Shown one piece after another: positions 21,813 through 54,267 of a DNA stretch of 64,000 nucleotides. The first letter of the stretch is position 1. Every line of letters starts with the position of its first letter. The notes beneath the pieces were generated by a model that was given only the letters and a program-made list of their open reading frames with translations, made no database searches and was not told the DNA's origin. Source of the stretch: Calditrichota bacterium (GTDB lineage: Bacteria > Electryoneota > RPQS01); contig JACJVZ010000001.1 in assembly GCA_020637445.1 (NCBI GenBank), forward strand, positions 1,755,952 through 1,819,951, written 5' to 3'. A program made the translations under genes and the position numbers.

Positions 21813-21976
21813 ATATCATTTATTGGCTGATGGGATTCGCGGTGCTGTTCATATTGGTCTTTGTAGGATTCTATTTGTGGGCAGTTCGCGGAGGGCAATT
21901 CGACGATTTGGAAAGCCCGGCACACCGGATTTTGTTTGACGACAACGAAACAACTAAAGATAAAGACGGGAAGTAG
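21809..21976 (+). CDS. ccoS: cbb3 oxidase maturation protein CcoS/FixS (55 aa; absent from supplied ORF track)
   Basis: Hand translation gives [55 protein letters not shown]. It has one TM segment and the CcoS-type GQFDDLE...RILFDD motif. Its start forms an ATGA overlap with the ccoI stop. Confidence 0.85.
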
Positions 21977-21981
21977 ACTCT

Positions 21982-24111: not shown

Positions 24112-24317
24112 TGCTTCGCGATATTCTAACCAACGCAAACCACGGCATTTGGCCGATCGTCTCCCTGATCATCATGTTCGTCGCGTTTGCGGCGGTGCTG
24201 ATCTGGACACTTTCGGGAAGGAAGAATCGTTTTGAAGAGGAAAGCAACATTCCGCTTCATGACGAAGATGACGAGCAACTAAATCATTCGCATTCCACGA
24301 GAGGAACTTCCTCATGA
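24111..24317 (+). CDS. CcoQ-like small membrane subunit
   Basis: 68 aa with a single TM segment (IWPIVSLIIMFVAFAAVLIW). Its position between ccoNO and ccoP fits CcoQ. It has a TGATG overlap with ccoNO and an ATGA overlap with ccoP. Confidence 0.6.
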   Translation: MLRDILTNANHGIWPIVSLIIMFVAFAAVLIWTLSGRKNRFEEESNIPLHDEDDEQLNHSHSTRGTSS

Positions 24318-24994: not shown

Positions 24995-25029
24995 ACAATT
25001 TTCGTTTCGGGGGGACGAAAGGGAATAGC

Positions 25030-30184: not shown

Positions 30185-30332
30185 GTTAGCGGAACATTAA
30201 AATCAATAAAAACAAGGCTTGAAAAGTGAATGAGGTTAGTAATGTTACGACTTTCCAGCCAGACATACAACGGCTCAAATCGTGTTTTTGGGATTGTATG
30301 TTTGTTTTCACGATGACACGGAGTTATCTTTT

Positions 30333-33095
30333 ATGATACGCCAACCAAGCCAAATGACTATGAACTTCCTGCGAATCGTGTTTCTGCTGACTCCGCTGTT
30401 CTGTGCTTGGGGTCAGCCTTATTGGGACTATATGCTTCATCCTGAGCGGCTATCTTGGCCGTTGGATGCCCAGATCCATCACTTCTCGAGTTGGTCTCGA
30501 AATGGCAGCAATAGTGACTTGGGCTTTTATTATGGCCCGGACCAGTTCGGCAACCAGATTCTTGCAGACGTCGAAGGACCGGGAGTCGTCACAGACATGT
30601 GGTGGACGCAGGATTTACAAACATCAGCGTGGCGCTGGAGGTTGTTTGTTGACGATACCACAAACGCTCTGATTGACACACCGCTCGTGTATCCCTTTGG
30701 ACTGATGAGTCCGTTTTTGCCTCCGGCGGCGGACAGCTCTTCGGGAGGTTACTACTCTTACGTGCCGATCCCATTTCAGGATCATATCCGGATTACATAC
30801 AACGACGCGCGTGATATTTATTATCACGTATCCGTGATCACGTTCCCTCCGGGTACTCCTGTTGAGTCGTTCACGATGCCTCCCAGCACGGACTACATGA
30901 CCAGACTTGATTCACTCTCGGCTCGGTTGTCGACACCGCAGACTCCGATCTATGTGCCGTTGGAATCGGCGTCCAATTTTGCGACCGTCTTGAATCCGGG
31001 CGAACGTGTAACCGCATTTGACGAAGCTCTGAGCGGACAGACACGGCGCATCTTGCTTGTGCTTCAAAACCGCACACAGTCGGTCTTTGAGAATTTCTGG
31101 ATCAGAGTTTATACAGATGGCTATCCAATTCCTGACATAGAAGGCCCCGTCTCGGCAGCCATGGCGTCGCCTCTGGGCTGGCACAACTACCAGTCGACAG
31201 TGACGGGCTCGCTGGGGGATTCTTTGTACTTCAACTTGCCTGTCGTGGCCTACCAGGAAGTGCGCATCGAGTTTGAAAACAAGACGGCGGTTCCACAGCC
31301 TTTCTCTACGCGCGTGGAATGGACGTCGTCGCAGGTCGGGCCGTTTAGATTAATGGGGCAATACCGCGAGGCTAACCCGACTCGGTTTTGGGAAAACTAT
31401 TTGATTGCGGAGTTTGAGGGCGCGGGCAATTTCGTCGGTACGACTCAAGACATGCAGCAGCCGGACAACCACGTGTTGGAAGGTGACGAGCGGTTCTTCA
31501 TCGACGGGGAAACGACGCCGACGTGGCATGGCACGGGCACGGAAGACTATTTCAAAGGCGGACGCTACTGGACTCCCGTGTATACTCAGCTTCCCCTGCA
31601 CGGCTGCGTGGCCTACCTTGCGGACAGCGCCGCGGCATATCGTTGGCACAACAACGATCCCGTACCGTTTACGACTCATTTGAAATATGACACGGAAGTC
31701 GGTCGGTTCAATAATCTGAGCGGTCACTACCGCACAATGGGATTTGCGTACGTGGAACGGCCGCAGTGGAAGGCCGTCGACGCAAGCGGAGACCACGCGA
31801 CTCACTCGGGCGAGACGCTTCGCATCATCGGCAAATCACTTGATCCGCTTTCGCCTATCTACGGCACACAAATGGGAGACGAGTGGCTGGGTTTGGCGGA
31901 CGGCGCGTTGTTGTCGGTAAACGGCGATTCGGTCTTTGATACGGAGTTCATCGCACCGGACTCATTGGCTCCGGGCGACTATCCGATCATGGTCATGACG
32001 GACTCCGGTTTAGATACGATCATTGCGTCTTGGAGGCATTTCGGGAATCCCACGGTGTGGTTTCTTCCGACCAGAACGGACATAGACAACGCAGTTTTTT
32101 TTGGCGACACGTTGGATATCACGGTGCAGGGCTTACCGCAAGACGAGACCGCAACCATTGCCATTGGTGGAATTCCATGTCCGTGGGTGGGAGTGACTCC
32201 TGCGGCGGATAGCCACGGGCGAATTGACGGAAAGATACGAGTACCGTTGGGACTTGTGGAAGGTGATTACCCGGTTACGGCCACGACGAAGGCCGCCGGA
32301 CACGGGATTTCGGATAGTCTGCTGCATTTTCGCAATTGGATACGGCTCGAACCGGAAGTCTTACTGCGCTCAAGTTGGAGCGGAGCTCGCATCAAAGAAG
32401 AGTGGTGCTATGATTGGATTCGCCACAACGACCCTGCTCCGTGGGGGCGCATCGCCTGCTACGTGCTGACCGGTAACGGACCGACCAGCTACGTAAATTT
32501 GCCGTTTTGGGCGCCCTCTGGAGGAACATTTCAGGCCGCGTACTTCTTCGGCAATACGGTCAACGGCGCAATCGTTACGATGGAAATTAACGGCGAGAGC
32601 AGCCTGGTTGAACATGACCTGTACGAATACACACTTTACCAGAGTTGGGTCCGCAGTGATACGGTTTGGGGCGGCACACACACTTTGAATCCGGGATACA
32701 ACCTGCTGACCATGCGGACCGTGGGGATTAATCCTTCGTCGATTGGCTGGAAAGCCGTTTTGGATCAAGTGCTGTTTGTCGCGACGGAACCTGATCCTGC
32801 TCCGGTAGCTGTGGAACATGTGCGCATCGTTCCGATTCCGAACGGCATCACGTTGCACTGGAGTCCGGTCAACGAAGACGTGGAAGGCAATCCCATTGTG
32901 CCGTTTGCCTATGACATCTTTAGCGCGCTTCCGGATGATACGATTTGGGTCTGGCAAGCGGAGACTTTTGGCAGCGACTCCTCGTGGACATGCGAGACGT
33001 TGCAAAATGGTCCGGTAGAGTTTGCGGTGGCGGCACGGCTGGGAACAAACCTTCCGGCCAGTTCAATCCGCAAGCGAATGCTTCAGCAGAAGTGA
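30333..33095 (+). CDS. Secreted DUF2961 (GH172-like) domain protein with long C-terminal extension
   Basis: GGAG RBS before the ATG at 30333, with a signal peptide (MNFLRIVFLLTPLFCAWG). The segment ERFFIDGETTPTWHGTGTEDYFKGG matches my memory of the DUF2961 core motif. An additional ~450 aa of beta-rich sequence follows. Confidence 0.55.
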   Translation: MIRQPSQMTMNFLRIVFLLTPLFCAWGQPYWDYMLHPERLSWPLDAQIHHFSSWSRNGSNSDLGFYYGPDQFGNQILADVEGPGVVTDMWWTQDLQTSAWRWRLFVDDTTNALIDTPLVYPFGLMSPFLPPAADSSSGGYYSYVPIPFQDHIRITYNDARDIYYHVSVITFPPGTPVESFTMPPSTDYMTRLDSLSARLSTPQTPIYVPLESASNFATVLNPGERVTAFDEALSGQTRRILLVLQNRTQSVFENFWIRVYTDGYPIPDIEGPVSAAMASPLGWHNYQSTVTGSLGDSLYFNLPVVAYQEVRIEFENKTAVPQPFSTRVEWTSSQVGPFRLMGQYREANPTRFWENYLIAEFEGAGNFVGTTQDMQQPDNHVLEGDERFFIDGETTPTWHGTGTEDYFKGGRYWTPVYTQLPLHGCVAYLADSAAAYRWHNNDPVPFTTHLKYDTEVGRFNNLSGHYRTMGFAYVERPQWKAVDASGDHATHSGETLRIIGKSLDPLSPIYGTQMGDEWLGLADGALLSVNGDSVFDTEFIAPDSLAPGDYPIMVMTDSGLDTIIASWRHFGNPTVWFLPTRTDIDNAVFFGDTLDITVQGLPQDETATIAIGGIPCPWVGVTPAADSHGRIDGKIRVPLGLVEGDYPVTATTKAAGHGISDSLLHFRNWIRLEPEVLLRSSWSGARIKEEWCYDWIRHNDPAPWGRIACYVLTGNGPTSYVNLPFWAPSGGTFQAAYFFGNTVNGAIVTMEINGESSLVEHDLYEYTLYQSWVRSDTVWGGTHTLNPGYNLLTMRTVGINPSSIGWKAVLDQVLFVATEPDPAPVAVEHVRIVPIPNGITLHWSPVNEDVEGNPIVPFAYDIFSALPDDTIWVWQAETFGSDSSWTCETLQNGPVEFAVAARLGTNLPASSIRKRMLQQK

Positions 33096-33110
33096 TTTGA
33101 CATTCAACAA

Positions 33111-33139
33111 AAAGCCCCCGAACACTCGGGGGCTTTTTT
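33111..33139. terminator. Bidirectional rho-independent terminator
   Basis: Hairpin aaagcccccg-aacact-cgggggcttt plus a T-run, between convergent genes. Confidence 0.7.
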
Positions 33140-33158
33140 CGTTTGCAATAGCTCCGAA

Positions 33159-35666
33159 CTAATCTGTCGCCGTGACAACATAGTAACGAGCATCTCCGAC
33201 TGGAATTGGAATGGTCAGAGACGTGTTCGACGTTGTGCCTTCAATCGTATCCCATGGCCCGTCGAAACTCGGTCCGCTCCACAGCCTGTAGTTGGCCGAG
33301 TTTCCTTGCCAGTTAAAGTTCAAATTGCCCGTATCTCCGTCATAGAGGATCGTGAGTCCCGAAGGAGCTTCGAGCACGTTGTCGACATATCCGTAACCAA
33401 AAATGTCATCGACATACCAGCCCTCGCGGTTGGTGTTTGCATCCGACCCAAAGCGGAAGCGAAGCTGCACGTCGGAACCTTCATACGCCGACAGATCGAG
33501 AGTGTAGTTAATCCACGTCGCAAGTGAACCGGCAAGGCAAGGTTCGCCCGGTGCAGGGCCGGTATATGGATTACTGCCGCCGGCTTGGTAGCGGGTGGCT
33601 CTGTTGTAGCCCTCGACGGGAACGATGTTCGTCCACGGACCGGCATCCACCGAAATTTCGATCCAGCCACCGTCATAAGCGGAGTCCGCATAGAAGCTGG
33701 AAACTTCGGACTCAATTCCTGTCGAGAAACTGATTTGTGCAAACGGCGGAAGCGACGTCAACACGGGCGACGTCAAACGCGCATCGCTCAAATCGGCGTA
33801 GTTTCCCGTACCCGTATCACCGCACTTGTAAGATTGCGTTCCGGAATTCGCGCGCTCGGTAGAGATATGCCACTGATCGACCCAACCTGCCGGAGCATCG
33901 TGCGTCCAGCCCGCGCCGCCCGTTTCAAAATCTTCGTTCAAGAAAGTGATTTGCTGCAGTGCGACAAGTTGCGCATTGACGATGGTCGTATCATCGACCA
34001 CAACTGAAACGCCGTAAACCGTATCGGGACTGAAACCGATCTTGGAAAACACGACGTCATATGTGCCGTCAGACAGCGCCAAATAGTAGTCGCCGTTCAC
34101 GTCGGTGAATACTTGATTGGAACCTGAAAGAATACTCACTCGAACGCCGCCGAGCGGATCGGTTCCGTCGGTGACATTGCCGCCGATGCGGCCGAGGTTC
34201 GACACAGACAGGACCGCTTCGTAGGCATCAATAAAGCCGTGGCCATAGATGTTGTCTTGACCGGCAGTACCGTAGTCGATAGCCGTATTCATGATCGCAT
34301 CTTTGATGGTCATGTGGTCACAATCCGGGCAGGCCTCACGCATGAGAGCCACAACCCCCGCGACGTGCGGACCGGCCATAGATGTACCGGAATACGTACC
34401 GTTATACCCGCCGCCGGGAACGGACGAATAGACGTCCACGCCGGGAGCGCAGATTTCAGGCTTAAAGTTGTCGGGTTCGGCCGGAGTACAAGGAGTCGGA
34501 CCACGGCTTGAGAAACTGGCAATGGGATACGGCGCGCTGTAGTTCGTGGCATCCACGGCACCGACGGAGAATATCTGATAAGCATTCAATGAATAGATAG
34601 CCGGACTGCGCAAACCGCTTGTGCCTTCGTTTCCAGCCGACCACGTGATTACGGGCCCTGCGGCTTCGCAATTGGTCACGACGGTATTCCAGAAATCAAA
34701 GCACTGCACATAGCCCAAGCTCGTGTTCACACCCCAGCTATTTTGAATTACGTCCGGGACGTCATCCATTGTGTTGACATTGTTGTCCGGGTCCGCGAAC
34801 CACTGATAGGCGTCAATAATGTCGTTGTCGAAATTGCTGCTCACACCCTGATCAATTGCATTGTCGGCAATCCACATCGCATTGGGAGCAGAGCCGACCG
34901 TGATGGTATCGGCACCGCTGATCGCGCGTCCGGTGATTGTACCCATGACGTGCGTGCCGTGGTTGTTGTTGTCGACCGGGAAAGTGGTTCCACCGCCCAA
35001 TGCGTCACGCCAGCATTCGGATGCGGGAGCAACCGTTCCACGCCAACGGGAGGCAAGTGCAGGATGTGAGCCATCGACGCCGGTATCGCAATTGGCAACC
35101 AAGACGCCGTTGCCGGTGATGCCCAATTCACGGTTAACTTGCGTCGCGCGAATCGCATCTTGACCCGGAGTAGTTGTTTCCGTATCGAGCGGATTGCGGC
35201 GGTGTTCGCGGCCGTCGCCGATGATGGGGTCGATCAACTCCGCTTTGAAGTTTTCGGTGACGTATTTTACGTCTGAGCGGTTTCTCAATGATTCAATGAA
35301 ATCCTTGCTCGCGTGAATGACAAACAGGTTTTCGATCCAATAGGCCGTGTAGCCCGTCAGATCTCCGGTTCGCTGCAATTCATCGAGCTCGCTCTGAAAG
35401 GCAGGCTGCGTTTGTGCGGCGTTGTACTTCAAGGCCTCGATCACTTCTCTGTGGCGCTCGGCCAGAGTCGCTTTGCGCGCATGCAGCGAAAAATCCAGCG
35501 CCATGATGTCGATTGGACTTTCTAAAATGACGATAGCGCTGACTTTGTCTTTTGCGGCTGCCTTATCCAGCTCGAAGTCCAGCGCGGGCGAAAACTCCGC
35601 GGCAAAGAGCGACGAGGCGGCAATCAGACAAACGAGTACACTCAGATTCTTAAACCAAATTTTCAT
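33159..35666 (-). CDS. Secreted subtilisin-like serine peptidase (S8) with propeptide, Ig-like/regulatory domain and C-terminal FN3-like module
   Basis: The ATG at 35666 follows a GGTGAG RBS, and a signal peptide is present (MKIWFKNLSVLVCLIAASSLFA). The D/H/S triad motifs are VANCDTGVDGSHPAL, HGTHVMGT and GTSMAGPHVAG. The C-terminus ends ...ARYYVVTATD. Confidence 0.9.
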   Translation of the reverse strand: MKIWFKNLSVLVCLIAASSLFAAEFSPALDFELDKAAAKDKVSAIVILESPIDIMALDFSLHARKATLAERHREVIEALKYNAAQTQPAFQSELDELQRTGDLTGYTAYWIENLFVIHASKDFIESLRNRSDVKYVTENFKAELIDPIIGDGREHRRNPLDTETTTPGQDAIRATQVNRELGITGNGVLVANCDTGVDGSHPALASRWRGTVAPASECWRDALGGGTTFPVDNNNHGTHVMGTITGRAISGADTITVGSAPNAMWIADNAIDQGVSSNFDNDIIDAYQWFADPDNNVNTMDDVPDVIQNSWGVNTSLGYVQCFDFWNTVVTNCEAAGPVITWSAGNEGTSGLRSPAIYSLNAYQIFSVGAVDATNYSAPYPIASFSSRGPTPCTPAEPDNFKPEICAPGVDVYSSVPGGGYNGTYSGTSMAGPHVAGVVALMREACPDCDHMTIKDAIMNTAIDYGTAGQDNIYGHGFIDAYEAVLSVSNLGRIGGNVTDGTDPLGGVRVSILSGSNQVFTDVNGDYYLALSDGTYDVVFSKIGFSPDTVYGVSVVVDDTTIVNAQLVALQQITFLNEDFETGGAGWTHDAPAGWVDQWHISTERANSGTQSYKCGDTGTGNYADLSDARLTSPVLTSLPPFAQISFSTGIESEVSSFYADSAYDGGWIEISVDAGPWTNIVPVEGYNRATRYQAGGSNPYTGPAPGEPCLAGSLATWINYTLDLSAYEGSDVQLRFRFGSDANTNREGWYVDDIFGYGYVDNVLEAPSGLTILYDGDTGNLNFNWQGNSANYRLWSGPSFDGPWDTIEGTTSNTSLTIPIPVGDARYYVVTATD

Positions 35667-35802
35667 GGTGCTCACCTTAATTTACGCAGTGCTACTGATC
35701 CTCGTTTCAAGGATACTTAAACCTAAATTTACGCTCAATTTGGCGGCAAGGCAAGGACAGACGGGAAGATTCTCAACAATTTCAGACCGGATCATCCAGA
35801 AC

Positions 35803-35830
35803 AAAAAAAAGGGGTGCCAGAGACACCCCT
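35803..35830 (-). terminator. Rho-independent terminator downstream of the disrupted T9SS cargo gene
   Basis: Hairpin ggggtg-ccagaga-cacccc with an A8 run on the plus strand (U-run on the transcript). Confidence 0.7.
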
Positions 35831-35856
35831 TTAGAAAAACAATGATTTGGCTTTCC

Positions 35857-37078
35857 CTACTTGACCAACAGCATCTTTCTTGTGGCCACAAAGGTGTTGC
35901 CGATGGTCAACCTATAGAAATACAGACCCGTTGCAAGAGTGTTTGCATCGTAGGAAATCGTATGGCGGCCAACCGAATAAAAGCCGTCAACAGGCTGCGC
36001 AACCAGCTCTCCGTTGACGTTAAAGATTTTCAGACTTACGGGATTCTGCTCCACGACGTCGAAGACGAAATTCGTGACCGAGTTGAATGGGTTGGGGTAG
36101 TTTTGGTGGAGAGCATACTCGGTAATTACGGCAGCCGAAGCATTGGGTGTCGCCGTGACTTCGCTGCCCCAGTTTTGTGTCGAGCCGTCGCGGTTCACAG
36201 TGAACAATGTGTACGTGTAGCTTGTTCCATTTGCCACTTCGTGGTCAACATAGTCGTAATTTGCCCCGGATGGACTATTTTCTGCCTGAACAGACGCGAT
36301 AAGCTCGAACTCTGAATCGTTTCCGAGTTTGCGCATCACATTGAAGCCATCCAAATTAGTCTCAGACAGAGTGTTCCATGTCAATTTCACGGAACGGTCC
36401 GCGGCAACAGCATCAAAACTTCCTTGCTCAACGGGCAGCACGAGATCGATATAAAGACACGCCCAGCCATCCACCTCGGTGTAGATCGGGAATTGCGAAT
36501 TGAGGTCTGCCCAAGTGAAAACAAGAGTCGTCGTACCATTCTCCCAATACGGAACTGCAGCCGGCGACTCAATATCCGAATTACATGCTGTATTGGGCCC
36601 GCAGCCTGAGGACAATGTAGCATAGAAGAACGGATCACCCGTCAAAGGGACGTCGTAAACATCCAGCAAGTATTTGGGGGTACTCGCACAAAGCCAAATG
36701 CAGACAGAAGTAGTGAGGTGGTTGTGGTTGTTCTGGTCAACGTCAAACTGCTCCTCCGGAATTTCCAACACGGCCGAACAGGTGTCGACAAGCGACTCAC
36801 ATGTCCAGCCGTCGACGACTATTTCGCTCAGACCATTCACAATAGTAAACACGGCGGAAGTCCAGAGGACATTGTCGCGGGTGACCGTAACAAAATACTT
36901 CGACGGCGTGGGAGTGGTTGTTGAGATCGTGAATGCAGGGTCTGTGGCAAACCCGCCGGGGATTCCCAACAGGTCCTCTCCGGTTCCCATGTCAATCTGA
37001 TTGAAGTTGCATTGACCAAATCCATTGCCGACAATGGGCAGAATATCACTGGGGTCGGGGCCGTTGTCATTATGATCC
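35857..37078 (-). pseudogene. C-terminal fragment of a Cys-rich T9SS cargo family member, split by an IS insertion
   Basis: The reading frame stays open beyond the track start (36990) up to the IS boundary: ...QDHNDNGPDPSDILPIVGNGFGQCNFNQIDMGTGEDLLGIPGGFATDPAFTISTTTP. This is colinear with the 39052..41412 paralogue. It ends in a T9SS CTD (LHQNYPNPFNSVTNF...RKMLLVK). Confidence 0.85.
37069..37078. repeat. Target-site duplication, left copy (ATTATGATCC)
   Basis: An identical 10-mer occurs at 38679..38688, immediately outside both IS ends. Confidence 0.8.
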
Positions 37079-37247
37079 TGTAAACCGTCAGCACATTTGG
37101 GACAGTTGGTCCAGTAGTATTAGTGGATGGTTTGTGATGTAAGTACAGCCGCGCGGCGCGACTGTACTTAACGCAAGTGACCAGGTTCGGTGTTGCGTTC
37201 CCTTCGATGAGATGTTATCATGTATCATCGAAGAAGGAGGGCTGACC

Positions 37248-37616
37248 ATGCCCAGGCGAAAGAAGCAGGTTGCGGCGGCAGCGCCGAAGGAAAGCGCGGC
37301 GCAGTTGATCAAGACGGTGCGTCGGCAGACGCGGACGAAGTACAGCGCGGAAGACAAGATCCGGATCGTTCTGGAAGGACTGCGGGGCGATCATCCGGTG
37401 GCCGTATTGTGCCGTCGGGAAGGCGTGAGCGCCAACGTGTATTACAATTGGCTGAAGGAGTTCATGGAAGCGGGGAAGGCGCGTTTGAAGGGCGAAGCGG
37501 TGCGCGGCGCGACCAAAGGGGAAGTGGAGTCGTATCGTCGTCAGAACGAAGAGCTGCGTCAGACGGTGGCCGATCTGATGCTGGAGGTGCGGACGCTCAA
37601 AAAAAGTCTCTTCTAA
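37248..37616 (+). CDS. IS3-family transposase OrfA (HTH)
   Basis: AAGGAGG RBS 7 nt upstream of the ATG at 37248. Contains YSAEDKIRIVLEGLRG...VAVLCRREGVSANVYYNWLKEF, typical of HTH_Tnp_1 OrfA proteins, plus a C-terminal leucine-zipper-like segment. Confidence 0.85.
   Translation: MPRRKKQVAAAAPKESAAQLIKTVRRQTRTKYSAEDKIRIVLEGLRGDHPVAVLCRREGVSANVYYNWLKEFMEAGKARLKGEAVRGATKGEVESYRRQNEELRQTVADLMLEVRTLKKSLF
37599..37606 (+). other. Programmed -1 ribosomal frameshift site (AAAAAAAG)
   Basis: The A7G run lies 8 nt before the orfA stop. orfB is open in the -1 frame across it (…KKSLLKRKAKRY…). Confidence 0.7.
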
Positions 37617-38638
37617 AGCGTAAGGCGAAGCGTTATGCCCGGCACACGTCCGAGCAGAAGCAGGATCTCTTGCGTCTGGTGGACACTGCGGCGCTGTCGG
37701 TCCGCCGTTGCTTGAAGCGTTTGAAGCTTCCCAAGAGCACGTATTACCGTTGGCAAAGCCGGGGCACACTCGCAGACCACTCTTCGGCGCCGCGCCGTGT
37801 CTGGAACAAGCTGCTCGAAGAGGAAGAGAGCACGATCATCGCGAACGCTTTGCTGGACGGCGATCTGTCACCGCGCCAACTGGCGTTCAGGATTACCGAT
37901 GACGGCGGGTTCAGTGTCAGCGAGAGCACGGTCTATCGCATTCTGAAGCGCAATGGATTAGCGCGGGAGTTGCCGCAGATCATCCCAGCGGCGAAAGAGT
38001 ATCACCGCAAGACGTCACGGGTGAATGAACTGTGGCAGACCGATCTGACGGAGCTGATGTTGCCCGACTGGGGCACGCATCCGTTGGGCAGTGTGGTGGA
38101 TGACTTCAGCAGGTTCTCGATCGTGTTCCGGCGCTTGCGCAACTCGAAAGGTGATACGGTGCAGGAGCTGATCGCGCAGGCGATTGCCGAGACCGGGATG
38201 GAAGAAGTGCCGCGTCATGAGCGCGTGCAACTACTGAGCGACAACGGCGCTTGCTACAAATGGGGCGCGTTCAACACCTACTTGAAGAGTCTGGGGATCC
38301 GGCACATCTTTTCGATGCGCAACCATCCCCAGACCAACGGCAAGGTCGAACGTCTGAACCGCACGGCCAAGGAAAAGCTACAGCTGATCGTGCATGCGTC
38401 ACCGGAGGCGTTCGACCGCGCGCTGGAGGAGTTCCGGCACTGGTACAACTATGAACACTACCACAAAGGTATCGGCAATCTGCATCCCGCCGACGTCTAC
38501 TACGGCCGGGCCGAAGCCATCCTCAAACAGCGCCAACTGCTCAAAGAACAAACAAAAAAGGCCCGTAAACAGGCCAATCTAAATCCTAACCAAAAACCAC
38601 GAAGGAAACGTAACTTACGAACCAAATCCCTCCATTAA
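37604..38638 (+). CDS. IS3-family transposase OrfB (DDE/rve integrase core), expressed as an OrfAB fusion by -1 frameshift
   Basis: The DDE triad context is visible: WQTDLTE, LLSDNGACY and HPQTNGKVERLNRTAKE. The frame is -1 relative to orfA. Confidence 0.85.
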   Translation, partial: KSLLKRKAKRYARHTSEQKQDLLRLVDTAALSVRRCLKRLKLPKSTYYRWQSRGTLADHSSAPRRVWNKLLEEEESTIIANALLDGDLSPRQLAFRITDDGGFSVSESTVYRILKRNGLARELPQIIPAAKEYHRKTSRVNELWQTDLTELMLPDWGTHPLGSVVDDFSRFSIVFRRLRNSKGDTVQELIAQAIAETGMEEVPRHERVQLLSDNGACYKWGAFNTYLKSLGIRHIFSMRNHPQTNGKVERLNRTAKEKLQLIVHASPEAFDRALEEFRHWYNYEHYHKGIGNLHPADVYYGRAEAILKQRQLLKEQTKKARKQANLNPNQKPRRKRNLRTKSLH

Positions 38639-38678
38639 CTTAACTGAAAAAGTGTCCCATTTCTTCTGACGACCAACA

Positions 38679-38688
38679 ATTATGATCC
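38679..38688. repeat. Target-site duplication, right copy (ATTATGATCC)
   Basis: Identical to 37069..37078. Confidence 0.8.
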
Positions 38689-38843
38689 CACCAAATTTGA
38701 CCCATATACCCATGGCTGATTGGACCGCCGGAGCCGTCACAACCGTGAGTCAACGGCGTGAGATTCAGTAAGATAGCATTAAACTGCGCAAACGCAGATG
38801 TCGAAAAACCAAGGCATAGCAAGAACAAAAACAACTTCTTCAT
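38679..38843 (-). pseudogene. N-terminal fragment (signal peptide + start of conserved domain) of the IS-split T9SS cargo gene
   Basis: GAGGTG RBS before the ATG at 38843. The fragment reads MKKLFLFLLCLGFSTSAFAQFNAILLNLTPLTHGCDGSGGPISHGYMGQIWWDHN. Deleting the IS plus one TSD copy joins it in frame to 37068 (…IWWDHNDNGPDPSD…), giving a 458-aa ORF. Confidence 0.85.
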
Positions 38844-38952
38844 AGTACACCTCGCAGAACAAAAACTGTTGATTAACCTGATCTCCAAGACAACTAACAC
38901 TTTCAATATCGCCCCAGTTATTCACAAAGTCAAGCGTGATTGCTCGCTCCGC

Positions 38953-39123
38953 AAAACAACACCGGGCCTCCCATGTGGGAGGCCCGGTAAGATTTCTAAC
39001 CAAAAGACTTAGGACCTTGCACAAGCGCATCGGGTCCAGCGTATACGCTGGTTACTTGACGAGCAGCATCTTCTTCGTGGCGGTGAACTCGTTGCCGATC
39101 TTCACCGTGTAGAAGTACAAACC
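38953..39123 (-). repeat. Duplicated gene-3'-end plus terminator block, copy A
   Basis: Near-identical to 41524..41697. It covers the last ~24 codons (…LYFYTVKIGNEFTATKKMLLVK), the stop codon, a short palindrome and the GC-rich hairpin. Confidence 0.8.
38962..38987 (-). terminator. Probable terminator hairpin downstream of 39052..41412
   Basis: 12-bp perfect stem ccgggcctccca-tg-tgggaggcccgg, followed on the transcript by tgttgtttt. Confidence 0.6.
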
Positions 39124-41412
39124 TGTCGCAAGATCATTGGCATCGAAAGATACCGTATGGCGGCCAACCGAAAATATGCCGTCAACAGGCTGCGCAACCA
39201 GCTCTCCGTTCAGATTGTAGATGTTGAGGACGACGGGATTCTGCTCCACAACATCGAAGACGAAATTCGTCACGGAGTTGAACGGGTTGGGGTAGTTTTG
39301 AAGAAGGGCGTGTTCTGTGACGACTGCGGTCGAAGAGGACGGTGTCGCTTCAGCGATCGTTGTCCACGTTCTGACTTCCCCGCCGATACTTACAACTTCT
39401 ATGCTGTACGTATAGGTCCGTCCGTTCACGACCGTTTCGTCCAGATAGGAATAGGTCGAGCCGACGGAAGTATTGGTTCCCGCAACAGTGTAAACGAGTT
39501 GACCGTCACGGAGCAATCTGAAATAGTCAATCTCAGACTCGGAAGCTGTTCCCCATTCGATCAGCACAGCATGGTCGCGCGGCTGAGCCTCAAAGTACGA
39601 CTCAACGAAGCCGATAGTGTAGTCAAAGCCGTCTTCCAAGCATATGCACCCACTCAGGTATCCCGGATAAATCCAGTTGCACCAATAGCCCGTCAAGTCG
39701 TCATAAGTCCATGCATCATTCCTGAAAATTGCCGATGCCGGTGGGCATTCTGTGCTGCATCCGTCAACTCCCCATGAGCAACCCGGAGCTACATTGACAA
39801 ACAAGAACACGTCTGGATCAAGCGGACCGTAACAAATTTGCACAGGGGTATTTGCGCAAAGTGAAATACAAGTAGAGTGCGGCCCATCTGCCCAGTAGTC
39901 GATTCCGCCGACCGTTTCAAAGTAAATGTACGTGGGCTCGTCGCAAGGAGGAGCGGCGCTAAAGGAGTCTTCCAAACAGACACAGCCGTCCGCGTTGCCC
40001 GGAACAATCCAATTGCACCAAAGGCTATTTGCTTCGTCGTAGGTCCACGAATTGTTATTGAAATTGAAAGTTGCAGGCGGGCATTCAGTGTTGCATCCCG
40101 TTTCTCCACTCAAACATCCTGAACTCACCGCCGCATAAGGGATCACATCTTGTCCCAGCGGACCGTAGCAAATCTGAACAGGTGTATTTGCACAAAGGGG
40201 AACACACGTGAAGTGCGGTCCGTCCGCCCAATAGTCGATTCCGCCAACGGTTTCGTAGTAGTAATACGTGGGTTCATCGCAAGGTGGAATCACGACACTA
40301 AAAGAGTCTTCCAAGCAAATGCAGCCGTCTGTTTCGCCCGGACTAATCGAGTTGCACCAAAGACTGTTAGCTTCGTCATAAACCCAAGCATTGTTGTCGA
40401 AAGTGAACTCGGCGGGCGGGCACTCACTACTGCATCCTTCAATTCCAAAGGAGCAGCCAGAGCGTACTTCGGCAAATGGGATCACATCTGCGCCCAACGG
40501 ACCGTAGCAAATCTGAACGGGTGTATTTGCACAAAGGGGAACACACGTGAAGTGCGGTCCGTCCGCCCAATAGTCGATTCCGCCAACGGTTTCGTAGTAG
40601 TAATACGTGGGTTCATCGCAAGGTGGAATCACGACACTAAAAGAGTCTTCCAAGCAAATGCAGCCGTCTGTTTCGCCCGGACTAATCGAGTTGCACCAAA
40701 GACTGTTAGCTTCGTCATAAACCCAAGCATTGTTGTCGAAAGTGAACTCGGCGGGCACGCATATAACGTCACATCCGCTGTTTGCAATCGAGCAACCAGA
40801 ACTCACCGATGCATAGGGGATAACATCTGCGCCCAACGGACCGTAACAAATCTGAACGGGAGTATTCGCACAAAGGGGAAGACACCTGAAGTGCGGCCCG
40901 TCTGCCCAGTAGTCTACACCATTGGTAGTTTCGAAGTAGTATTCAGTAGGTTCATCGCAAAAGAACTCTTCTCCATTGCACACCCAGCCGCTGACTTCGT
41001 ATTCGTTTAGGCCGTTTTCTATTGTGAATACTGCAGAAGTCCAACGAGCGAGCGGGCCATCCACAACAACGTAGTATCTTGAAGGCATCGGAGTCGTTGT
41101 GCTAATCGTAAAGGCAGGATCTGTGGCAAAACCGCCGGGGATTCCCAGCAGGTCCTCGCCTGTACCCATGTCGATTTGGTTGAAGTTGCATTGACCAAAA
41201 CCCGATCCGACTATGGGCGGAAGATCGGATGGGTCTGGACCATTGTCGTTTTGGTCCCAAACAATGGTGGCAAAATAGCCATGACTTATGGCCTCAAGAT
41301 CCCCGAAACAGTCATGGGTCAGCGGTGTTGTGTTGATTAGTATCGCGTTGAACTGCGCAAAGGCAGTTGTCGAAAGTCCGAGGCACAAAAGCAAAAGAAA
41401 CATCTTCTTCAT
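39052..41412 (-). CDS. Cys-rich T9SS cargo family protein, four-module member (786 aa)
   Basis: GAGGTGG RBS before the ATG at 41412, with a signal peptide (MKKMFLLLLCLGLSTTAFAQ). A conserved N-domain is shared with the two neighbouring genes. It is followed by four ~113-aa ten-Cys modules, an FN3-like segment and a T9SS CTD (LLQNYPNPFNSVTNF...KKMLLVK). Confidence 0.85.
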   Translation of the reverse strand: MKKMFLLLLCLGLSTTAFAQFNAILINTTPLTHDCFGDLEAISHGYFATIVWDQNDNGPDPSDLPPIVGSGFGQCNFNQIDMGTGEDLLGIPGGFATDPAFTISTTTPMPSRYYVVVDGPLARWTSAVFTIENGLNEYEVSGWVCNGEEFFCDEPTEYYFETTNGVDYWADGPHFRCLPLCANTPVQICYGPLGADVIPYASVSSGCSIANSGCDVICVPAEFTFDNNAWVYDEANSLWCNSISPGETDGCICLEDSFSVVIPPCDEPTYYYYETVGGIDYWADGPHFTCVPLCANTPVQICYGPLGADVIPFAEVRSGCSFGIEGCSSECPPAEFTFDNNAWVYDEANSLWCNSISPGETDGCICLEDSFSVVIPPCDEPTYYYYETVGGIDYWADGPHFTCVPLCANTPVQICYGPLGQDVIPYAAVSSGCLSGETGCNTECPPATFNFNNNSWTYDEANSLWCNWIVPGNADGCVCLEDSFSAAPPCDEPTYIYFETVGGIDYWADGPHSTCISLCANTPVQICYGPLDPDVFLFVNVAPGCSWGVDGCSTECPPASAIFRNDAWTYDDLTGYWCNWIYPGYLSGCICLEDGFDYTIGFVESYFEAQPRDHAVLIEWGTASESEIDYFRLLRDGQLVYTVAGTNTSVGSTYSYLDETVVNGRTYTYSIEVVSIGGEVRTWTTIAEATPSSSTAVVTEHALLQNYPNPFNSVTNFVFDVVEQNPVVLNIYNLNGELVAQPVDGIFSVGRHTVSFDANDLATGLYFYTVKIGNEFTATKKMLLVK
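39613..40959 (-). repeat. Four tandem ~339-bp (113-codon) coding repeats
   Basis: The module start CDEPT recurs at residues 172, 285, 398 and 510 of the track ORF. Cores 40160..40417 and 40499..40756 (258 nt) differ at one position (40180 a versus 40519 g). Confidence 0.9.
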
Positions 41413-41523
41413 AGCCACCTCGATAAGGTTGTTGGGAACGGTTAAAAAAGCTGCAAATCCCTTGAGTTTCAAGATTGTTCAACCAAGTCAATAAGTCAAG
41501 AGAGTTCTGTCACATATTCCCGT

Positions 41524-41697
41524 AAAACAACACCGGGCCTCCCATGTGGGAGGCCCGGTGAAAGTTCTAACCAAAAGACTTAGGACCTTGGCGTTAGCGC
41601 ATCAGGTCCAGCATCTACGCTGGTTTTACTTGACAAGCAGCATCTTCTTCGTGGCGGTGAACTCGTTGCCGATCTTCACCGTGTAGAAGTACAAACC
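41524..41697 (-). repeat. Duplicated gene-3'-end plus terminator block, copy B
   Basis: Near-identical to 38953..39123. Confidence 0.8.
41533..41558 (-). terminator. Probable terminator hairpin downstream of 41626..42969
   Basis: The same 12-bp stem ccgggcctccca-tg-tgggaggcccgg as at 38962..38987. Confidence 0.6.
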
Positions 41698-42969
41698 GCT
41701 GGTCAGGTTCGAAGCGTCGAACGAAACAGTGTGACGACCGGCGCCAACCGTGCCGTTCACCAACGTCGCAACTTCTTGACCCATCGCGTTGTAAACCGTC
41801 AGGTCAACATGGTTTTCCGCAACCACGTCATACACCAAGTTCGTGCTCGGGTTGAACGGGTTCGGGTAGTTCTGATGCAGAGCATATTCCGTGATCACTG
41901 CAGCGCTCGCGCTCGGCGTAGCCGAAACGATCGTGCCCAGTTCCGTCACGTTGCTGTTCGCGTCGATCAGGTTCAGCGTGTACTCATAAGACGTGCCGTT
42001 CACAGCGCCAGCGTCCACATACGTGTAGCTCGTGACGTTCGTCGCGTCCACCGTCGTCAGAGACTCAAACTCATGACCAACCATGCGGCGCAGAACTTCA
42101 TAGCTCGCCACGTCCGCGCCAGCGCCGACGGTCCAAGCCACTTCAACCGAATGATCACGGGCTTCCGCCGTCAGGTTCACGTCCACAACGCCTTCGATGT
42201 AGTCGAGGCAGAAGCAAACGCAGCCTTCGCTCAACGGGGTAATCACGTTGCACCATTGCTCAGTGCTCGGATTGTAAACCCAAGAAGCGTCGTCATACAG
42301 GTACTGGGCGCCCGGGCAATCCACGTCGCAACCCGAGTTCGTCGGCGAGCAGCCTTCGAACAAACGAGCATGCGGACGCTCGATCTCACGCAGCGGTCCA
42401 AGGCAGATCGTCACGGGAGCGTTTTCGCACATGCCGATGCACTGATAGTAAGGAACCGGGAAGTCACGACCGCCAGCCGTCGTAATCAAAACTTCCGTCG
42501 GCTCGTTGCAGGTCGGGCCTACCGGCACACACTGCCAACCACCCACTTCATACTCATTCAAACCATTCAAAACCGTGAACACTGCCGACGTCCAACGAAC
42601 GCCGCCACACTCGACCACGACATAGTACAGCGACGGCTGGGGAGTCGTCGTGCTAATCGTGAACGCCGGGTCCGTCGCAAAGCCACCGCACAGACCCAAC
42701 AGGTCTTCGCCAGTGCCCATGTCGATCGTGTTGAAATTCGCTTGGCCGAAACCAGCACCCACCGCAACCGGGCTGTCCAATTCATCCGGACCGTTCGCAT
42801 TCGCGTCCCAATAAATCACAGCGTCGCAGCCGTGGCTCAAACAGTTGCCGCCAAAATCACACTGATCCGTCAACGGCGTGAAGTTCAACAAAATCGCGTT
42901 GAACTGCGCCTGGCTTACACTCGCCACCGCGAAAAGGGCCATCGCCATCAAAATCATTTTCAATTTCAT
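41626..42969 (-). CDS. Cys-rich T9SS cargo family protein, single-module member (447 aa)
   Basis: AAGGAG RBS and a signal peptide (MKLKMILMAMALFAVASVSQAQ). It has the same N-domain motifs (QFNAILLNFTPLT, GFGQANFNTIDMGTGEDLLG, GGFATDPAFTISTTTP, WTSAVFTVLNGLNEYEVGGWQC). One Cys-rich module, an FN3-like segment and a T9SS CTD follow. Confidence 0.85.
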   Translation of the reverse strand: MKLKMILMAMALFAVASVSQAQFNAILLNFTPLTDQCDFGGNCLSHGCDAVIYWDANANGPDELDSPVAVGAGFGQANFNTIDMGTGEDLLGLCGGFATDPAFTISTTTPQPSLYYVVVECGGVRWTSAVFTVLNGLNEYEVGGWQCVPVGPTCNEPTEVLITTAGGRDFPVPYYQCIGMCENAPVTICLGPLREIERPHARLFEGCSPTNSGCDVDCPGAQYLYDDASWVYNPSTEQWCNVITPLSEGCVCFCLDYIEGVVDVNLTAEARDHSVEVAWTVGAGADVASYEVLRRMVGHEFESLTTVDATNVTSYTYVDAGAVNGTSYEYTLNLIDANSNVTELGTIVSATPSASAAVITEYALHQNYPNPFNPSTNLVYDVVAENHVDLTVYNAMGQEVATLVNGTVGAGRHTVSFDASNLTSGLYFYTVKIGNEFTATKKMLLVK

Positions 42970-43307: not shown

Positions 43308-43673
43308 TCAGTTGAGTACTTCTTTGAGGGCGGCCAGCAACTGCGCCCGGTCAAACGGTTTGCTAATGGTACACGAGGCGCCGATGAGCTTAGCCATACA
43401 TAAATAGTCAGAGGGTCCAATTCGCCCGCCCCCGGAAATTGCAATGATCCGGCAGTCCTTGTTTTCGGACTTGAGCTGGCGAATCGTTTCAATCCCTTCC
43501 TGCTCGGGCATGATGATATCGGTGATCACGATTTCGGAGGGGTTTGCCCGGTATTTTATCACACCTTCCCGTCCATTAGAAGCTGTGTCGACTTCGTAAC
43601 CTTCGCGTTCCAGCATTCTGCACAACATCTGCCGGATACTTGGGTCATCGTCAATTATGAGGACTTTGTTCAT
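43308..43673 (-). CDS. Single-domain response regulator (CheY-like receiver only)
   Basis: Contains MNKVLIIDDDPSIRQ...VITDIIMPEQEGIETIRQLK...ISKPFDRAQLL. There is no output domain. The start overlaps the kinase stop by 23 nt. Confidence 0.9.
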   Translation of the reverse strand: MNKVLIIDDDPSIRQMLCRMLEREGYEVDTASNGREGVIKYRANPSEIVITDIIMPEQEGIETIRQLKSENKDCRIIAISGGGRIGPSDYLCMAKLIGASCTISKPFDRAQLLAALKEVLN

Positions 43674-46600
43674 TATGAATCATCTTATTTTTGTTGTCAA
43701 TACACTTTCTAACATGCCTTGCGAGTTCCCCGGAACTTACAGGCTTTGACAAGATTGCCGCAAATTCGTCAGCATCGCCGTCCATCTGCGGGCCGGCGGA
43801 TAAGAGGACAACGGGCAGTCCGGGCTCGAAGTCATGTGCCGCGCGGGCGACATCGACACCAGAGAGAATAGGCATGACGTCGTCGACAATAACAGCGGCG
43901 ACAGGGGTCTCAACTTGCGCAAGCTGAACTAACGCCTCGACAGGGTCTGATGTCGCCGTAACTTGATAGCCGAAGGCTTCCAGCATTTGTTTGCCCAGCA
44001 ATAGTATGGTGTCGTCGTCGTCACACAACAGGACGTGTTCCGATCCAAAACCTTCAGATCGGCCTGCACTGGAGTCCATTTGCACTTCAGAGTCAATGAG
44101 CGGAAAATACACCGACACCGACGTTCCTTTTCCGGGCTCGGAGCAGACTTCGATTGCACCACCATGTGAAGTGACGATGCCGTGGACCACGGAGAGACCT
44201 AAGCCTGTGCCATGGCCGACGTTTTTGGTTGTGAAGAACGGTTCGAACATCCGCGATCTTGTCGATTCGTCCATTCCCGCACCTGTGTCTTTCACGGTCA
44301 GTACGGCATATTTTCCTTCGGCCAAACGGCAATTGTTCAGCGTTTCCGGTGAGGTCAGCTCACGCATAGACAGTTTCAGCTCAACGGCTCCACCTGATTC
44401 TTCGATCGCATGAAACGCATTTGTACACAGATTCATGACGACTTGGTTGATCAAGGTCGGGTCGGACAACGTCGCGCCGACGTTTTCAATATTTTGAATG
44501 AACTCGCAGTTTCGCGGAGTACTGGCCACAAGCAGACGCGCGACTTCTTTGACAACCAAATCCAGTTTCAAGGGGTGCCTTGCTTGTTCGTCATGCCGGC
44601 TGAACGCGAGAATTTGTTGAACCAGCCCTTTTGCTCTATATGCGGCATTGATGACATGTTCGATATCTTCCCGTCCGGGCGAACTCGGCTCCAATTCGTT
44701 GGCAGCGATGTCGGCATAGCCCAAAATCGGAGTCAGGATATTGTTGAAATCATGTGCGATGCCTCCGGCCAAGGTTCCAATCGTTTCCAGCCTTTGATTG
44801 TGCCGGATGCGATTCTGCAATTCTTGGAATTCCTGCTCGGCCTTGAGTTTTTCGGTAATATCCGATCCAATGGATACAAAGACAGAGCGGTCATTCCAGT
44901 CCATCATTTGGATTGAAGTTTCGAACTGATACGTCGACCCGTCCTTGCGTACGTGCGCTCCCGAACCCGTAACGGCTTCAGTCGAGGAACTTGAAAGCGG
45001 GCTAATCAATTCGCGGAATCCGCTTTCTTTCCAGCCTTCCACAAGGGACGCCAAAGTCAAATCTCTTAGCTCTTCAAGCGAATAGCCTGTGTTCGAACGT
45101 GCGCGTTCATTTGCTTCGAGAATTTTCCAAGTTTCCGGTTCGATGATGTAAACTTCGTTCATCGAGTTGTCCAGAATTCGACCCAGTTGGGAAGCCCGCG
45201 CTTCGACAAGTTTGCGTTCGGTAATGTTCGTCCATGTTCCGGCGGCTCGAAGCGGCGTACCGTCTTCATTCCACTCTACAACTTTGCCTCGTGACAGCAC
45301 CCAGATCCAATTTCCTTTTGAGGTGCGGATACGCTCTTCAATTTCATAGTGCGTCGAGCGGGTCGCAACGTGCTCCTCGTAAGCACGGTTGAAATTCGTC
45401 AGGCTATCGGGGTCAATATGCCGTTCCCACAGACTTATATGATGTTCAAAGACAGAGGGTTCGTACTCGAGCCACTCGATGATTCTCGGGCTGAAATAAC
45501 AATCGCCGGAGACGACGTTCCAATCCCAGAATCCGTCCGATGATCCGTCGAGAGCGAGCGCAAGCCGTCTTTCGCTCTCACGCAGTCTGGCTTCGGCAAG
45601 TACTTGTTCCGTTACGTCGAGCGTGGTGCCGAATACTCTGAGCGGTGCACCGTTCTCGTCCCGCTCTGCCTCGCCTTGACTGAACACATACCGAACCTCA
45701 CCCGAGGGGCGGACGATACGGTATCGGTACGCGAATTGACTTTTTCCTTGAAACAGCTGCTGGATACTTTCGTAAAAGATTTGACGATCGTCCGAATGTA
45801 CGAACGAAATGAGAGTCTCGGACGTAATGGGCATCTGAGTCTCTTCACGTCCGCAGATCTTAAGTTTCTCTTCACTAAGAATGACCTCGTTGGCGGCAAC
45901 ATCAAATTCCCAGAATCCGAGTTTTGCGATCCGTTGAGCCTCTTTCAGCTTGGTGCGGCTTAGGTTCAGCTCATGTTCGCGAGTGAGCCTGTCGGTAATA
46001 TCGCGGATAAAACTGGAGAAGTGAGTCTCTGTGCCGACTTTGATTGGGCAGACAGCAAGTTCAACTTGAAATTCGTATCCGTCCTTGTGTTTTGCAGGTA
46101 ATTGCAGCAGGCGGTTCAAGACGTGGCCGTGTCCGGACTCGGAAAACATTCGCATTCCATTTCGGTGGGACTGAACGAAGGCCTCGGGCATGATGAGATC
46201 ATGGAGCATTTCTCCAATAGCCTCGTCGCGAGCGTAGCCGAAAACACGTTCTGCTTGTGGATTCCATTCCGTAACAAGCCCCGCGGAGTCAATCGCAACG
46301 ACGGCATCGAGGGAAGAATCCACGATTTGCCGGGCCAACCCGCGGGTTTGTTCAAGCTCCATTTCGGCGACGACTTCATTTGTGATGACTTCGGTGAACA
46401 TCACGATCCCGCCGATATCCCCATCGCCCCGGTACCACGGTTTGATTTGCCAGCGAACCCAATCCGTTGACCCATCAGCACGTGGAAACTCTTCTTTTGA
46501 ACAAGACTCCGTCGCACCGTTCATACAGCGGCGGTGAATTTCTCTCCATTCATTGCCGATTTCGGGAAATATGTCGTAATGATTTCTGCCGACTAAGTCA

Positions 46601-53748: not shown

Positions 53749-54267
53749 GTGCGTCTCCTTACACAATTTTCATCCGACACATCACGTCTGATACTATTTG
53801 ACGTGCAATATGCAAGATTATAACAAGTTGATGTGGGGTAGTCAAACAATCCAGTACAAAAATCACGTTAAGTTGAAGAATTGAGCCAGCAATAAAATAC
53901 CGTATATCACGTTGAAACAGCGATTTGTGCAATGGTTAAGAATTGCGACTATAAGGCCTCTTCGGATTTGGAGGCATTACCCATCCGAAATGACAACAAA
54001 TGGAGGAAACGCAGGAAGAGTCGTTGACAAGTGCCGACACGATGCCGCTTCGCCTCGGATTTTGGCAGTGTGCTTTCAAACAGACCCATGAGGTTATTTT
54101 AATCGATTATATTTTTATGGGTTACGGTGATATTTGTGGACTGGGTCAGGCTTAGGAGTAGGGTGAAGTGACTTGCTTTCAGGCGGAATCTGTTGCAAAT
54201 TGTAAGGATACCTGTAATATGTGTTTTGAGTGACGTTACTTCTGAAAGTGTAAGACTTAAAGTGAAC

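Follow-up and report, generated by a model that had tools for sequence, protein, structure and literature searches.

Three tandem paralogues with a type IX secretion tag and two domain families outside the domain databases in a Calditrichota bacterium

What kind of proteins are encoded by three tandem, cysteine-rich genes in the genome of a Calditrichota bacterium (GTDB lineage Bacteria; Electryoneota; RPQS01), and do they belong to any described family? The genes, in the following referred to as A, B and C, lie in a stretch of 64,000 nucleotides (positions 1,755,952 to 1,819,951 of contig JACJVZ010000001.1, assembly GCA_020637445.1), which we call the window. An earlier annotation made by a model from the letters and the open reading frames (ORFs) of this DNA, the sequence-only reading, had described their products as surface proteins with a sorting tag of the type IX secretion system (T9SS), had found no recognisable family for them and had favoured a rapidly diversifying adhesin, receptor or decoy family. 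As judged by sequence tests, we find that the three proteins are type-A cargo of the T9SS and fall into no described adhesin, lectin, FN3-only or CarboxypepD_reg family. Their tempo of evolution, on the other hand, is not that of a rapidly diversifying family.

The three paralogues are encoded on the minus strand, at the positions at which the sequence-only reading had placed them from the ORF listing. A protein alignment bears out the common plan that it had proposed: a signal peptide is followed by an N-terminal domain of ~130 amino acids (N-domain), one or several cysteine-rich modules of ~113 amino acids (Cys modules), a segment resembling fibronectin type III domains (FN3-like) and a T9SS type-A C-terminal sorting domain (CTD). 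Gene C is split by an insertion sequence (IS) and is laid out further below; the ORF listing and the domain limits for genes A and B are as follows.

41626..42969, minus strand: gene A, 447 amino acids, 17 Cys
42907-42969, minus strand: signal peptide of A
42511..42906, minus strand: N-domain of A, 132 amino acids, beginning at mature residue 1 (QFNA)
42196-42510, minus strand: single Cys module of A, 11 Cys
41905-42195, minus strand: FN3-like segment of A
41629-41904, minus strand: T9SS type-A CTD of A
39052..41412, minus strand: gene B, 786 amino acids from the MKKMF start, 44 Cys
41356-41412, minus strand: signal peptide of B
40960-41355, minus strand: N-domain of B
39613..40959, minus strand: whole block of four tandem Cys modules of B, 111-113 amino acids and 10 Cys apiece (repeat family D1)
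40621-40959, 40282-40620, 39946-40281 and 39613-39945, minus strand: the four individual Cys modules of B
39331-39612, minus strand: FN3-like segment of B
39055-39330, minus strand: CTD of B

The sorting tag is the best-supported part of this plan, since all three proteins exceed the cut-offs of two CTD hidden Markov models: A, B and C score 41.9, 35.1 and 36.7 bits with TIGR04183 (cut-off 23), and 39.9, 37.0 and 37.9 bits with PF18962 (cut-off 27). At the other end, inspection reveals Sec signal peptides with a basic n-region, a hydrophobic core and an A-x-A motif ahead of QFNA (...SVSQA|QFNA in A, ...AFA|QFNA in B and C). The N-domain motifs quoted in the sequence-only reading were found and aligned in all three proteins, and the four modules of B repeat at the DNA level with a period of 336-339 nt. 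The resemblance within the family is far above chance, with profile E-values reaching 1e-210.

Beyond the CTD, we found no family to which the proteins could be assigned. Searches of the whole proteins and of their isolated domains against Pfam, NCBIfam and PADLOC matched the CTD only, and neither the N-domain nor the Cys module; PADLOC gave no match for A, B, the C fragment or the proteins of a related gene cluster discussed below (contig L002). Even at E ≤ 10, Pfam yielded no recurrent family for 49 N-domains or for 40 Cys modules, and searches of PDB with three sequence profiles returned chance toxin-like matches only, at E > 0.2. The AlphaFold model of the N-domain of A (m6eb9b636edbc, built from a 49-sequence alignment) is all-beta, with a pLDDT of 97.2 and a pTM of 0.90, and its first strand starts at mature residue 2 (QFNAIL...). 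A second model, of residues 1-265 of A (7 sequences, pLDDT 78.9), is likewise all-beta and comprises two domains. At E ≤ 1e-3, Foldseek found no neighbours of the two-domain model in PDB and none of the N-domain model in PDB and BFVD, the two databases that the structural comparison of the N-domain covers; the best N-domain matches had an E-value of 0.28 in PDB (TMq ≤ 0.38) and of 0.063 in BFVD. The absence of a recognisable family, as claimed in the sequence-only reading for both domains, has thus withstood profile, structure and hhalign comparisons.

The weak best neighbours of the N-domain are sandwiches of the CarboxypepD_reg/transthyretin-like type, which resemble it in size and all-beta nature (BFVD E 0.063, TM 0.30-0.37; PDB 3e8v, TMt 0.54), at levels that are not significant. 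Membership in CarboxypepD_reg was rejected: hhalign against the four CarboxypepD_reg domains encoded in the window itself gave a probability of 1.3%, and none of the 49 N-domains matched the Pfam family even at E ≤ 10. A relationship between the N-domain and the Cys module was rejected as well. We also did not adopt the Bacteroidetes ‘Q-rule’ as the source of the N-terminal Gln of the mature proteins. This rule does not extend across the whole FCB (Fibrobacteres-Chlorobi-Bacteroidetes) group (PMC5837995), and the Gln looks family-specific, because Gln is not the mature start of the other secreted proteins in the window.

On the residue level, the N-domain is highly conserved. D34, G39, D44 and F76 are invariant among 49 diverse sequences; C16, P40, N57, G74 and G115 are nearly invariant in both N-domain alignments, and N59, P89 and C126 exceed 90% conservation in the 50-row alignment only. 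A conserved loop, WDxNxNGPDxxD (i.e. WD34-x-N-x-N-G39-P-D-x-x-D44), has the form of a DxDxDG-type motif. Loops of this type bind Ca2+ in many beta-sandwich and EF-hand contexts, and the EF-hand-like D-x-N-x-N-G-P-D-x-x-D loop of the N-domain is probably a Ca2+ site. Likewise, C16 and C126, which are placed at opposite ends of the N-domain sequence, probably form a disulfide staple that closes the domain.

The Cys module has a similarly distinct signature. C24, C28, C54, C61 and C99 are invariant, C1, C65 and C97 nearly so, and these eight core Cys are complemented by an optional pair that co-varies in its presence (phi 0.7); the conserved motifs are C-x3-C, GC-x6-C-x3-C and GC-x-C. The core residues probably form four disulfides and the optional pair a fifth. 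The ten Cys per module noted earlier are found exactly in each of the four modules of B, whereas the module of A has 11 and that of C has 6. The module numbers reported for A (one) and B (four) stand as well, whereas the description of the C module as merely degenerate does not: its Cys-poor subtype also occurs in a homologue, P0009, which is 52% identical to C over its full length, and the module is a conserved variant, as opposed to a decayed copy. As for the FN3-like designation, the Pfam fn3 model gives no match in A, B and C at E ≤ 1 and one above the cut-off in the equivalent segment of homologue P0029 (31.7 bits, cut-off 25); the corresponding segment of homologue P0008 scores 17.4 bits.

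Such dense, conserved Cys motifs could also belong to a small unrecognised enzyme or to a metal or redox cofactor domain, for instance one with a Cys-ligated metal, and redox-type selenoproteins do adjoin A-like genes in relatives (see below). We nevertheless judge it very improbable that the Cys module or the N-domain is of this kind. Disulfides would account for the core Cys being even in number and for the optional pair co-varying, Sec export argues against cytoplasmic cofactor loading, the subtype of C is conserved though it has four Cys fewer, and in the N-domain, polar residues are invariant in the Ca-type loop alone.

The sequence-only reading had treated the three genes as a local family, which they are not. 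When we ran HMMER exhaustively over 1.84 billion representatives with a profile of the N-domain and one module, we obtained at least 274 family clusters at E ≤ 1e-3, of which 182 remained at E ≤ 1e-10 and 37 at E ≤ 1e-30, with clusters defined at 50% identity and the count being a lower bound; word-index homologue searches, which gave 5 and 9 proteins only, strongly underestimate the family. In a one-genome-per-species scan, the relatives are confined to metagenome-assembled genomes (MAGs), and the family is known from metagenomes and MAGs only. MAGs with more than one locus have 2-5 of them, again a lower bound, as the scan relied on two short motifs. The relatives are named ‘hypothetical protein’ in the databases, and one of their MAG records is labelled Calditrichaeota; the presence of type-A CTD proteins suggests hosts of the FCB group. 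No viral contig was found to encode an N-domain relative.

The architectures of these homologues place the N-domain in a consistent position. It is present in 131 of the top 153 matches, and in 121 of 126 complete homologues it begins among the first 60 residues, with only the signal peptide ahead of it. Among the top 153, 39 have the canonical arrangement of ~450 amino acids (N-domain, one module, FN3-like segment, CTD), 20 consist of the N-domain only (<260 amino acids), 19 combine N-domain and CTD at canonical length with no module, and a few have tandem N-domains. A further ~35 exceed 520 amino acids; these long proteins hold the N-domain at their tip and reach up to 2437 amino acids. Across the family, the number of modules ranges from 1 to 4. 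In 44 longer homologues, all Pfam partners are non-catalytic stalk or adhesion modules, namely Por_Secre_tail (28), fn3 (22), FlgD_ig (17), the RGI_lyase beta-sheet domain (10) and FG-GAP_3 (5), with LRR, CARDB and CHRD in one protein each.

Given the domain order, the sorting tag, the N-terminal head, the lack of catalytic partners and a Cys module count that varies, we read these proteins as a head on a stalk. Specifically, the likeliest reading, for which we see about an even chance, is that A, B and C are surface-displayed, Ca2+-dependent binding proteins on disulfide-braced stalks; of the roles proposed in the sequence-only reading, surface binding thus stands. A, B and, before the IS arrived, C would be exported by Sec and then secreted by the T9SS; the CTD would be removed and the protein tethered on the outer surface with its N-terminus facing outwards. 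This role of type-A CTDs is established in Bacteroidota (PMC11285876). The head would be a compact beta-domain of ~130 amino acids with one conserved disulfide and a putative Ca2+ loop, which would bind an extracellular ligand, i.e. a polymer, a particle or another cell. The stalk, formed by the Cys modules and the FN3-like domain, would be rigid, and its length would be set by the number of modules, from one to four. Among the paralogues, the N-domain and the CTD form conserved ends, while the middle is free to diverge.

This architecture has parallels in two known groups of surface proteins. In Bacteroidota, type-A CTD cargo includes SprB and RemA of Flavobacterium johnsoniae and the CTD proteins of Porphyromonas gingivalis. 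Like such cargo, the proteins described here have a Sec signal peptide, a modular beta-rich body and an Ig- or FN3-like domain beside a TIGR04183/PF18962 CTD, and they occur as multi-copy families; unlike it, A, B and C have a head and a stalk that are unrelated to described cargo domains, their family's hosts are uncultured lineages represented by MAGs only, and many members have no CTD. The second parallel is one of analogy. The MSCRAMM/Sdr adhesins of Gram-positive bacteria have an N-terminal head, repeated stalk domains, a C-terminal signal for covalent attachment and Ca2+-type DxNxNG loops in beta-sandwiches, to which the N-terminal head, variable module repeats, C-terminal surface signal and DxNxNG-type loop of A, B and C correspond. 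Membership in this group was rejected: an LPXTG motif is missing, the C-terminus being a T9SS CTD, no relationship in sequence or fold was detected, and SdrG, SdrE and Bbp appear in Foldseek only at E > 0.1 and TM < 0.15. The T9SS sortase and not sortase A would anchor the proteins.

Several observations weigh against a head on a stalk. No ligand, lectin-like fold or adhesin family was matched, for which reason ‘binding’ is read from the architecture alone. The T9SS machinery genes are not in the 64-kb window. Furthermore, many family members are N-domain-only proteins of 150-200 amino acids that lack a CTD. By themselves, they should stay in the periplasm, which fits poorly with a purely distal-tip role, and of all observations it is their abundance that this model accounts for least.

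The genomic context of such proteins in relatives offers a different explanation. A second, strongly conserved type of locus with A-like genes is found in at least seven MAG loci, and additionally on contigs L002 and L006. Its genes encode, in this order, a protein of 290-310 amino acids, one or two A-like proteins, an N-domain-only protein of ~175 amino acids, two or three lipoproteins, a protein of 215 amino acids, a CTD protein of ~210 amino acids and uridine kinase (udk). The cluster loci are L010 (positions 4947-12326, for example), L011, L015, L021, L029, L030, L032 and L034. At L034 (GCA_964269295.1, 7891-9239), the A-like gene is called in pieces of 37, 99 and 310 amino acids, which suggests frameshifts caused by assembly error or a pseudogene. 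The 215-amino-acid protein has weak similarity to the N-domain (hhalign E 0.002, probability 14%). In the cluster members that were scanned, i.e. the L002 set and the 309-amino-acid protein of L010, no family was detected besides the CTD, udk and a match below the cut-off to an UshA-like family.

The latter match concerns the lipoproteins of L002 and L010, which are similar to the NCBIfam family NF041198, ‘UshA-like (seleno)protein PCGU’ (E 3e-37; 128 bits, below the cut-off of 275). They carry PCG-TGA or PCGC at the motif expected for this family and cover the N-terminal half of the model only. An in-frame TGA is conserved in the motif PCG-TGA-K..GG(V/L)AR (positions 3438-3440 and 5679-5681 in L002; 8423-8425 and 9590-9592 in L010), and in a paralogue at 4431-5441 of L002, the motif reads PCGCK, with a Cys exactly in the place of the TGA. 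A GC-rich hairpin lies ~20 nt 3' of the TGA, and Rfam yields no match for a selenocysteine insertion sequence (SECIS). These UshA-like lipoproteins are likely selenoproteins.

The N-domain could, on this basis, be a protein-protein docking module: CTD-anchored proteins, A, B and C among them, would recruit partners that consist of the N-domain only and thereby build a surface complex that includes the UshA-like selenoproteins, and the array in the window would consist of spare or variant anchors. The pairing of A-like with N-domain-only and UshA-like genes in the conserved cluster speaks for this, as do the weak N-domain resemblance of the 215-amino-acid protein and the frequency of small N-domain-only proteins (20 of the top 153 matches). 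We consider it unlikely all the same, for the partner genes are absent both from the 64-kb window and from its orthologous locus in another MAG (L014, see below), and in the giant homologues, long stalks that resemble adhesins end in the N-domain. A more far-reaching version, in which the N-domain is a new fold and a new extracellular module, the anchored proteins dock N-domain-only proteins and PCGU selenoproteins as a surface machine for redox chemistry or nutrient capture, and the window array is a lineage-specific expansion of anchors or receptors, appears improbable to us. The ‘system’ that had been suspected in the window is unproven for this locus; the window has nothing of the multi-gene cluster to which A-like genes belong in relatives.

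Contigs L002 and L006, which come from other samples, connect the two types of loci. They are 99.9% identical to the window through the kinase and receiver genes upstream of A and through A itself, and then switch to the gene set of the cluster. The switch occurs at approximately position 41512 of the window (from position 2451 in L002), just 3' of the terminator of A, and coincides with a 71-nt repeat, while contigs L003 and L005 back the junction from A to B seen in the window. The join in L002 and L006 reflects either recombination between strains, at the terminator region that is repeated, or a chimera that arose in assembly because the 3' ends are nearly identical.

This repeat belongs to the regulatory sequences between the genes. 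As the sequence-only reading had it, each gene has its own ribosome-binding site and terminator: a Shine-Dalgarno-like GGAG or GAGGTG stands 3-6 nt ahead of each ATG, and a hairpin with a T-tail follows each gene.

41531..41560, minus strand: terminator hairpin 3' of A, 13-bp stem, T-tail, within the 71-nt repeat at 41520-41590
38960..38989, minus strand: terminator hairpin 3' of B, T-tail, within the 71-nt repeat at 38949-39019
35808..35832, minus strand: terminator hairpin 3' of C, T-tail

The two copies of the repeat, after A and after B, are 94% identical. Together with the mosaic identities and the allele variation described next, they are clear signs of recombination or gene conversion in the array, the latter of which the sequence-only reading had suggested. 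Among A, B and C, amino acid identity amounts to 64-71% in the N-domain and 63-79% in the CTD, to 28-42% in the Cys module and to 33-36% in the FN3-like segment. C and its neighbour B are 71% identical in the N-domain and 79% in the CTD, but 31% in the middle, so that their ends look homogenised, whereas C and P0009 exhibit the reversed pattern (52%, 64% and 50%, respectively); in the N-domain tree, A, B and C group together. The mosaic identity of C points to concerted evolution of the ends or to an exchanged middle. Furthermore, an allele of gene B with three modules exists in the same species (L035, GCA_020439805.1, JAGQRY010000021.1, positions 227-2248; 99.3% nucleotide identity to the window). 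It lacks exactly one unit of 339 nt and may represent true copy-number variation or the collapse of a repeat in short-read assembly.

Are A, B and C then a rapidly diversifying decoy, receptor or phase-variable antigen family under pressure from phages or predators, as the sequence-only reading preferred? The tandem paralogues, the alleles of B with three and four modules, the mosaic pattern of gene conversion and the IS in C would suit such a family. The substitution rates do not: synonymous divergence (dS) among the three paralogues has reached saturation in most segments, the modules of B compared with each other have a dS of 0.46-1.9 and a ratio of nonsynonymous to synonymous divergence (dN/dS) of 0.16-0.25, and 8 contigs from several samples encode a gene A protein with 100% identity. 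On these grounds, the paralogues are old and their modules are under purifying selection, with diversifying selection being ruled out by the dN/dS values. In addition, three independent assemblies have one and the same IS insertion fixed, the distal N-domain is among the most conserved and not the most variable parts, no simple-sequence or invertible switch was seen, and no relatives were found on viral contigs. We hence regard a decoy or antigen family as quite improbable and drop the notion of rapid diversification.

The split of gene C by an IS, reported earlier, is borne out by a complete element of 1600 bp with inverted repeats and a 10-bp target-site duplication.

38679..38843, minus strand: 5' fragment of gene C, signal peptide and first ~33 residues of the N-domain
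35857..37078, minus strand: 3' fragment of gene C, remaining N-domain, module, FN3-like segment and CTD
36781-37078, minus strand: remainder of the N-domain
36436-36780, minus strand: Cys-poor module
36136-36435, minus strand: FN3-like segment
35860-36135, minus strand: CTD
38679-38688 and 37069-37078: copies of the 10-bp target-site duplication, sequence ATTATGATCC
37079..38678, plus strand: insertion sequence, 1600 bp, IS3/IS481 type
37212-37616, plus strand: helix-turn-helix orfA of the IS
extending to 38638, plus strand: frame of the rve-domain orfB of the IS

The element is inserted within the WDHNDNGPD codons of gene C. Its terminal inverted repeats are imperfect and begin with TGTAAACCGTCAG and TGTTGGTCGTCAG, and both of its ORFs are intact, with a slippery A7G run near position 37600 between them. 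Pfam matches to HTH_Tnp_1, rve and rve_3 all exceed their cut-offs, while the NCBIfam scores for IS481 (175 bits, cut-off 224) and IS3 (141 bits, cut-off 160) remain below them. By the split of orfA and orfB at the A7G run, it is classified as an IS3/IS481-type element. It is present once in the window.

Gene C is, by this disruption, predicted to be knocked out at present. Removal of the IS and of one copy of the duplication yields an in-frame, uninterrupted ORF of 458 amino acids, which identifies the IS as the sole lesion. The identical insertion is present in the same-species assemblies L001 (99.8% identity) and L035 (99.3%), and no intact allele was seen among the three assemblies. One may take this as a sign that the whole array is decaying and has no present function. 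This is hardly credible in our view, given that A and B are intact, with Shine-Dalgarno-like sites, terminators and purifying selection, that C has no other lesions once the IS is removed, and that the family is conserved across many genomes.

Upstream of A, the locus continues with two regulatory genes, so that its order is histidine kinase, receiver protein, A, B, C with its IS, and a peptidase of the S8 family.

43651-48501, minus strand: hybrid PAS/GAF histidine kinase, upstream of A
43308-43673, minus strand: stand-alone receiver protein, upstream of A

The orthologous locus L014, from MAG JADKHW, has the same kinase (55% identity), receiver (73%) and S8 (69%) genes; between the latter two, it contains one A-like gene and an unrelated gene of 429 amino acids on the opposite strand. 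As L014 has just one A-like gene, B and C are additions in the lineage of the window. The link of the array to this pair of regulators, drawn in the sequence-only reading, is thus kept in one other genome. Direct transcriptional control of A is not implied by it, however, because the regulator is a bare receiver domain with no output domain.

The remainder of the window is rich in secreted and respiratory proteins. Other CTD proteins are encoded in the window (505-2634) and in related loci, which lends indirect support to a T9SS machinery in the genome. Large secreted proteins are abundant around the array (30282-35675, 48685-52860, 54193-63815 and 15340-19047), which speaks for a head on a stalk; the set includes three S8 subtilases, an M14 carboxypeptidase, a DUF2961/GH172-like protein and two beta-helix/PMP-repeat proteins of ~1200 amino acids, and this neighbourhood suggests a protein- and polymer-degrading lifestyle. 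A cbb3-type oxidase cluster and a catalase lie at 19380-26451 and 3269-4798. The oxidase genes, in which CcoN and CcoO are fused in an ORF of 709 amino acids, are accompanied by a CcoI-like P-type ATPase and a FixG/CcoG-like protein. Judging by these genes, the organism seems to use oxygen for respiration, and disulfide formation in the periplasm would be compatible with this. Lastly, an ORF of 650 amino acids at 9335-11287 has no Pfam match at E ≤ 1e-5, and the window yielded no matches when scanned for Rfam families and tRNAs.

No concept is overturned by these findings, as new domains on bacterial surface proteins are common. Their value lies in two well-delimited, conserved domain families outside Pfam, NCBIfam and PDB, which are candidates for domain databases and structural genomics; the N-domain in particular lends itself to a new Pfam family and to structure determination. 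The link of the family to a cluster with UshA-like selenoproteins provides a testable lead. Describing both domains would annotate hundreds of ‘hypothetical’ surface proteins of uncultured lineages, and the locus illustrates how T9SS cargo evolves, with a conserved head and sorting tag, an exchangeable stalk, modules that are gained and lost, and a gene knocked out by an IS.

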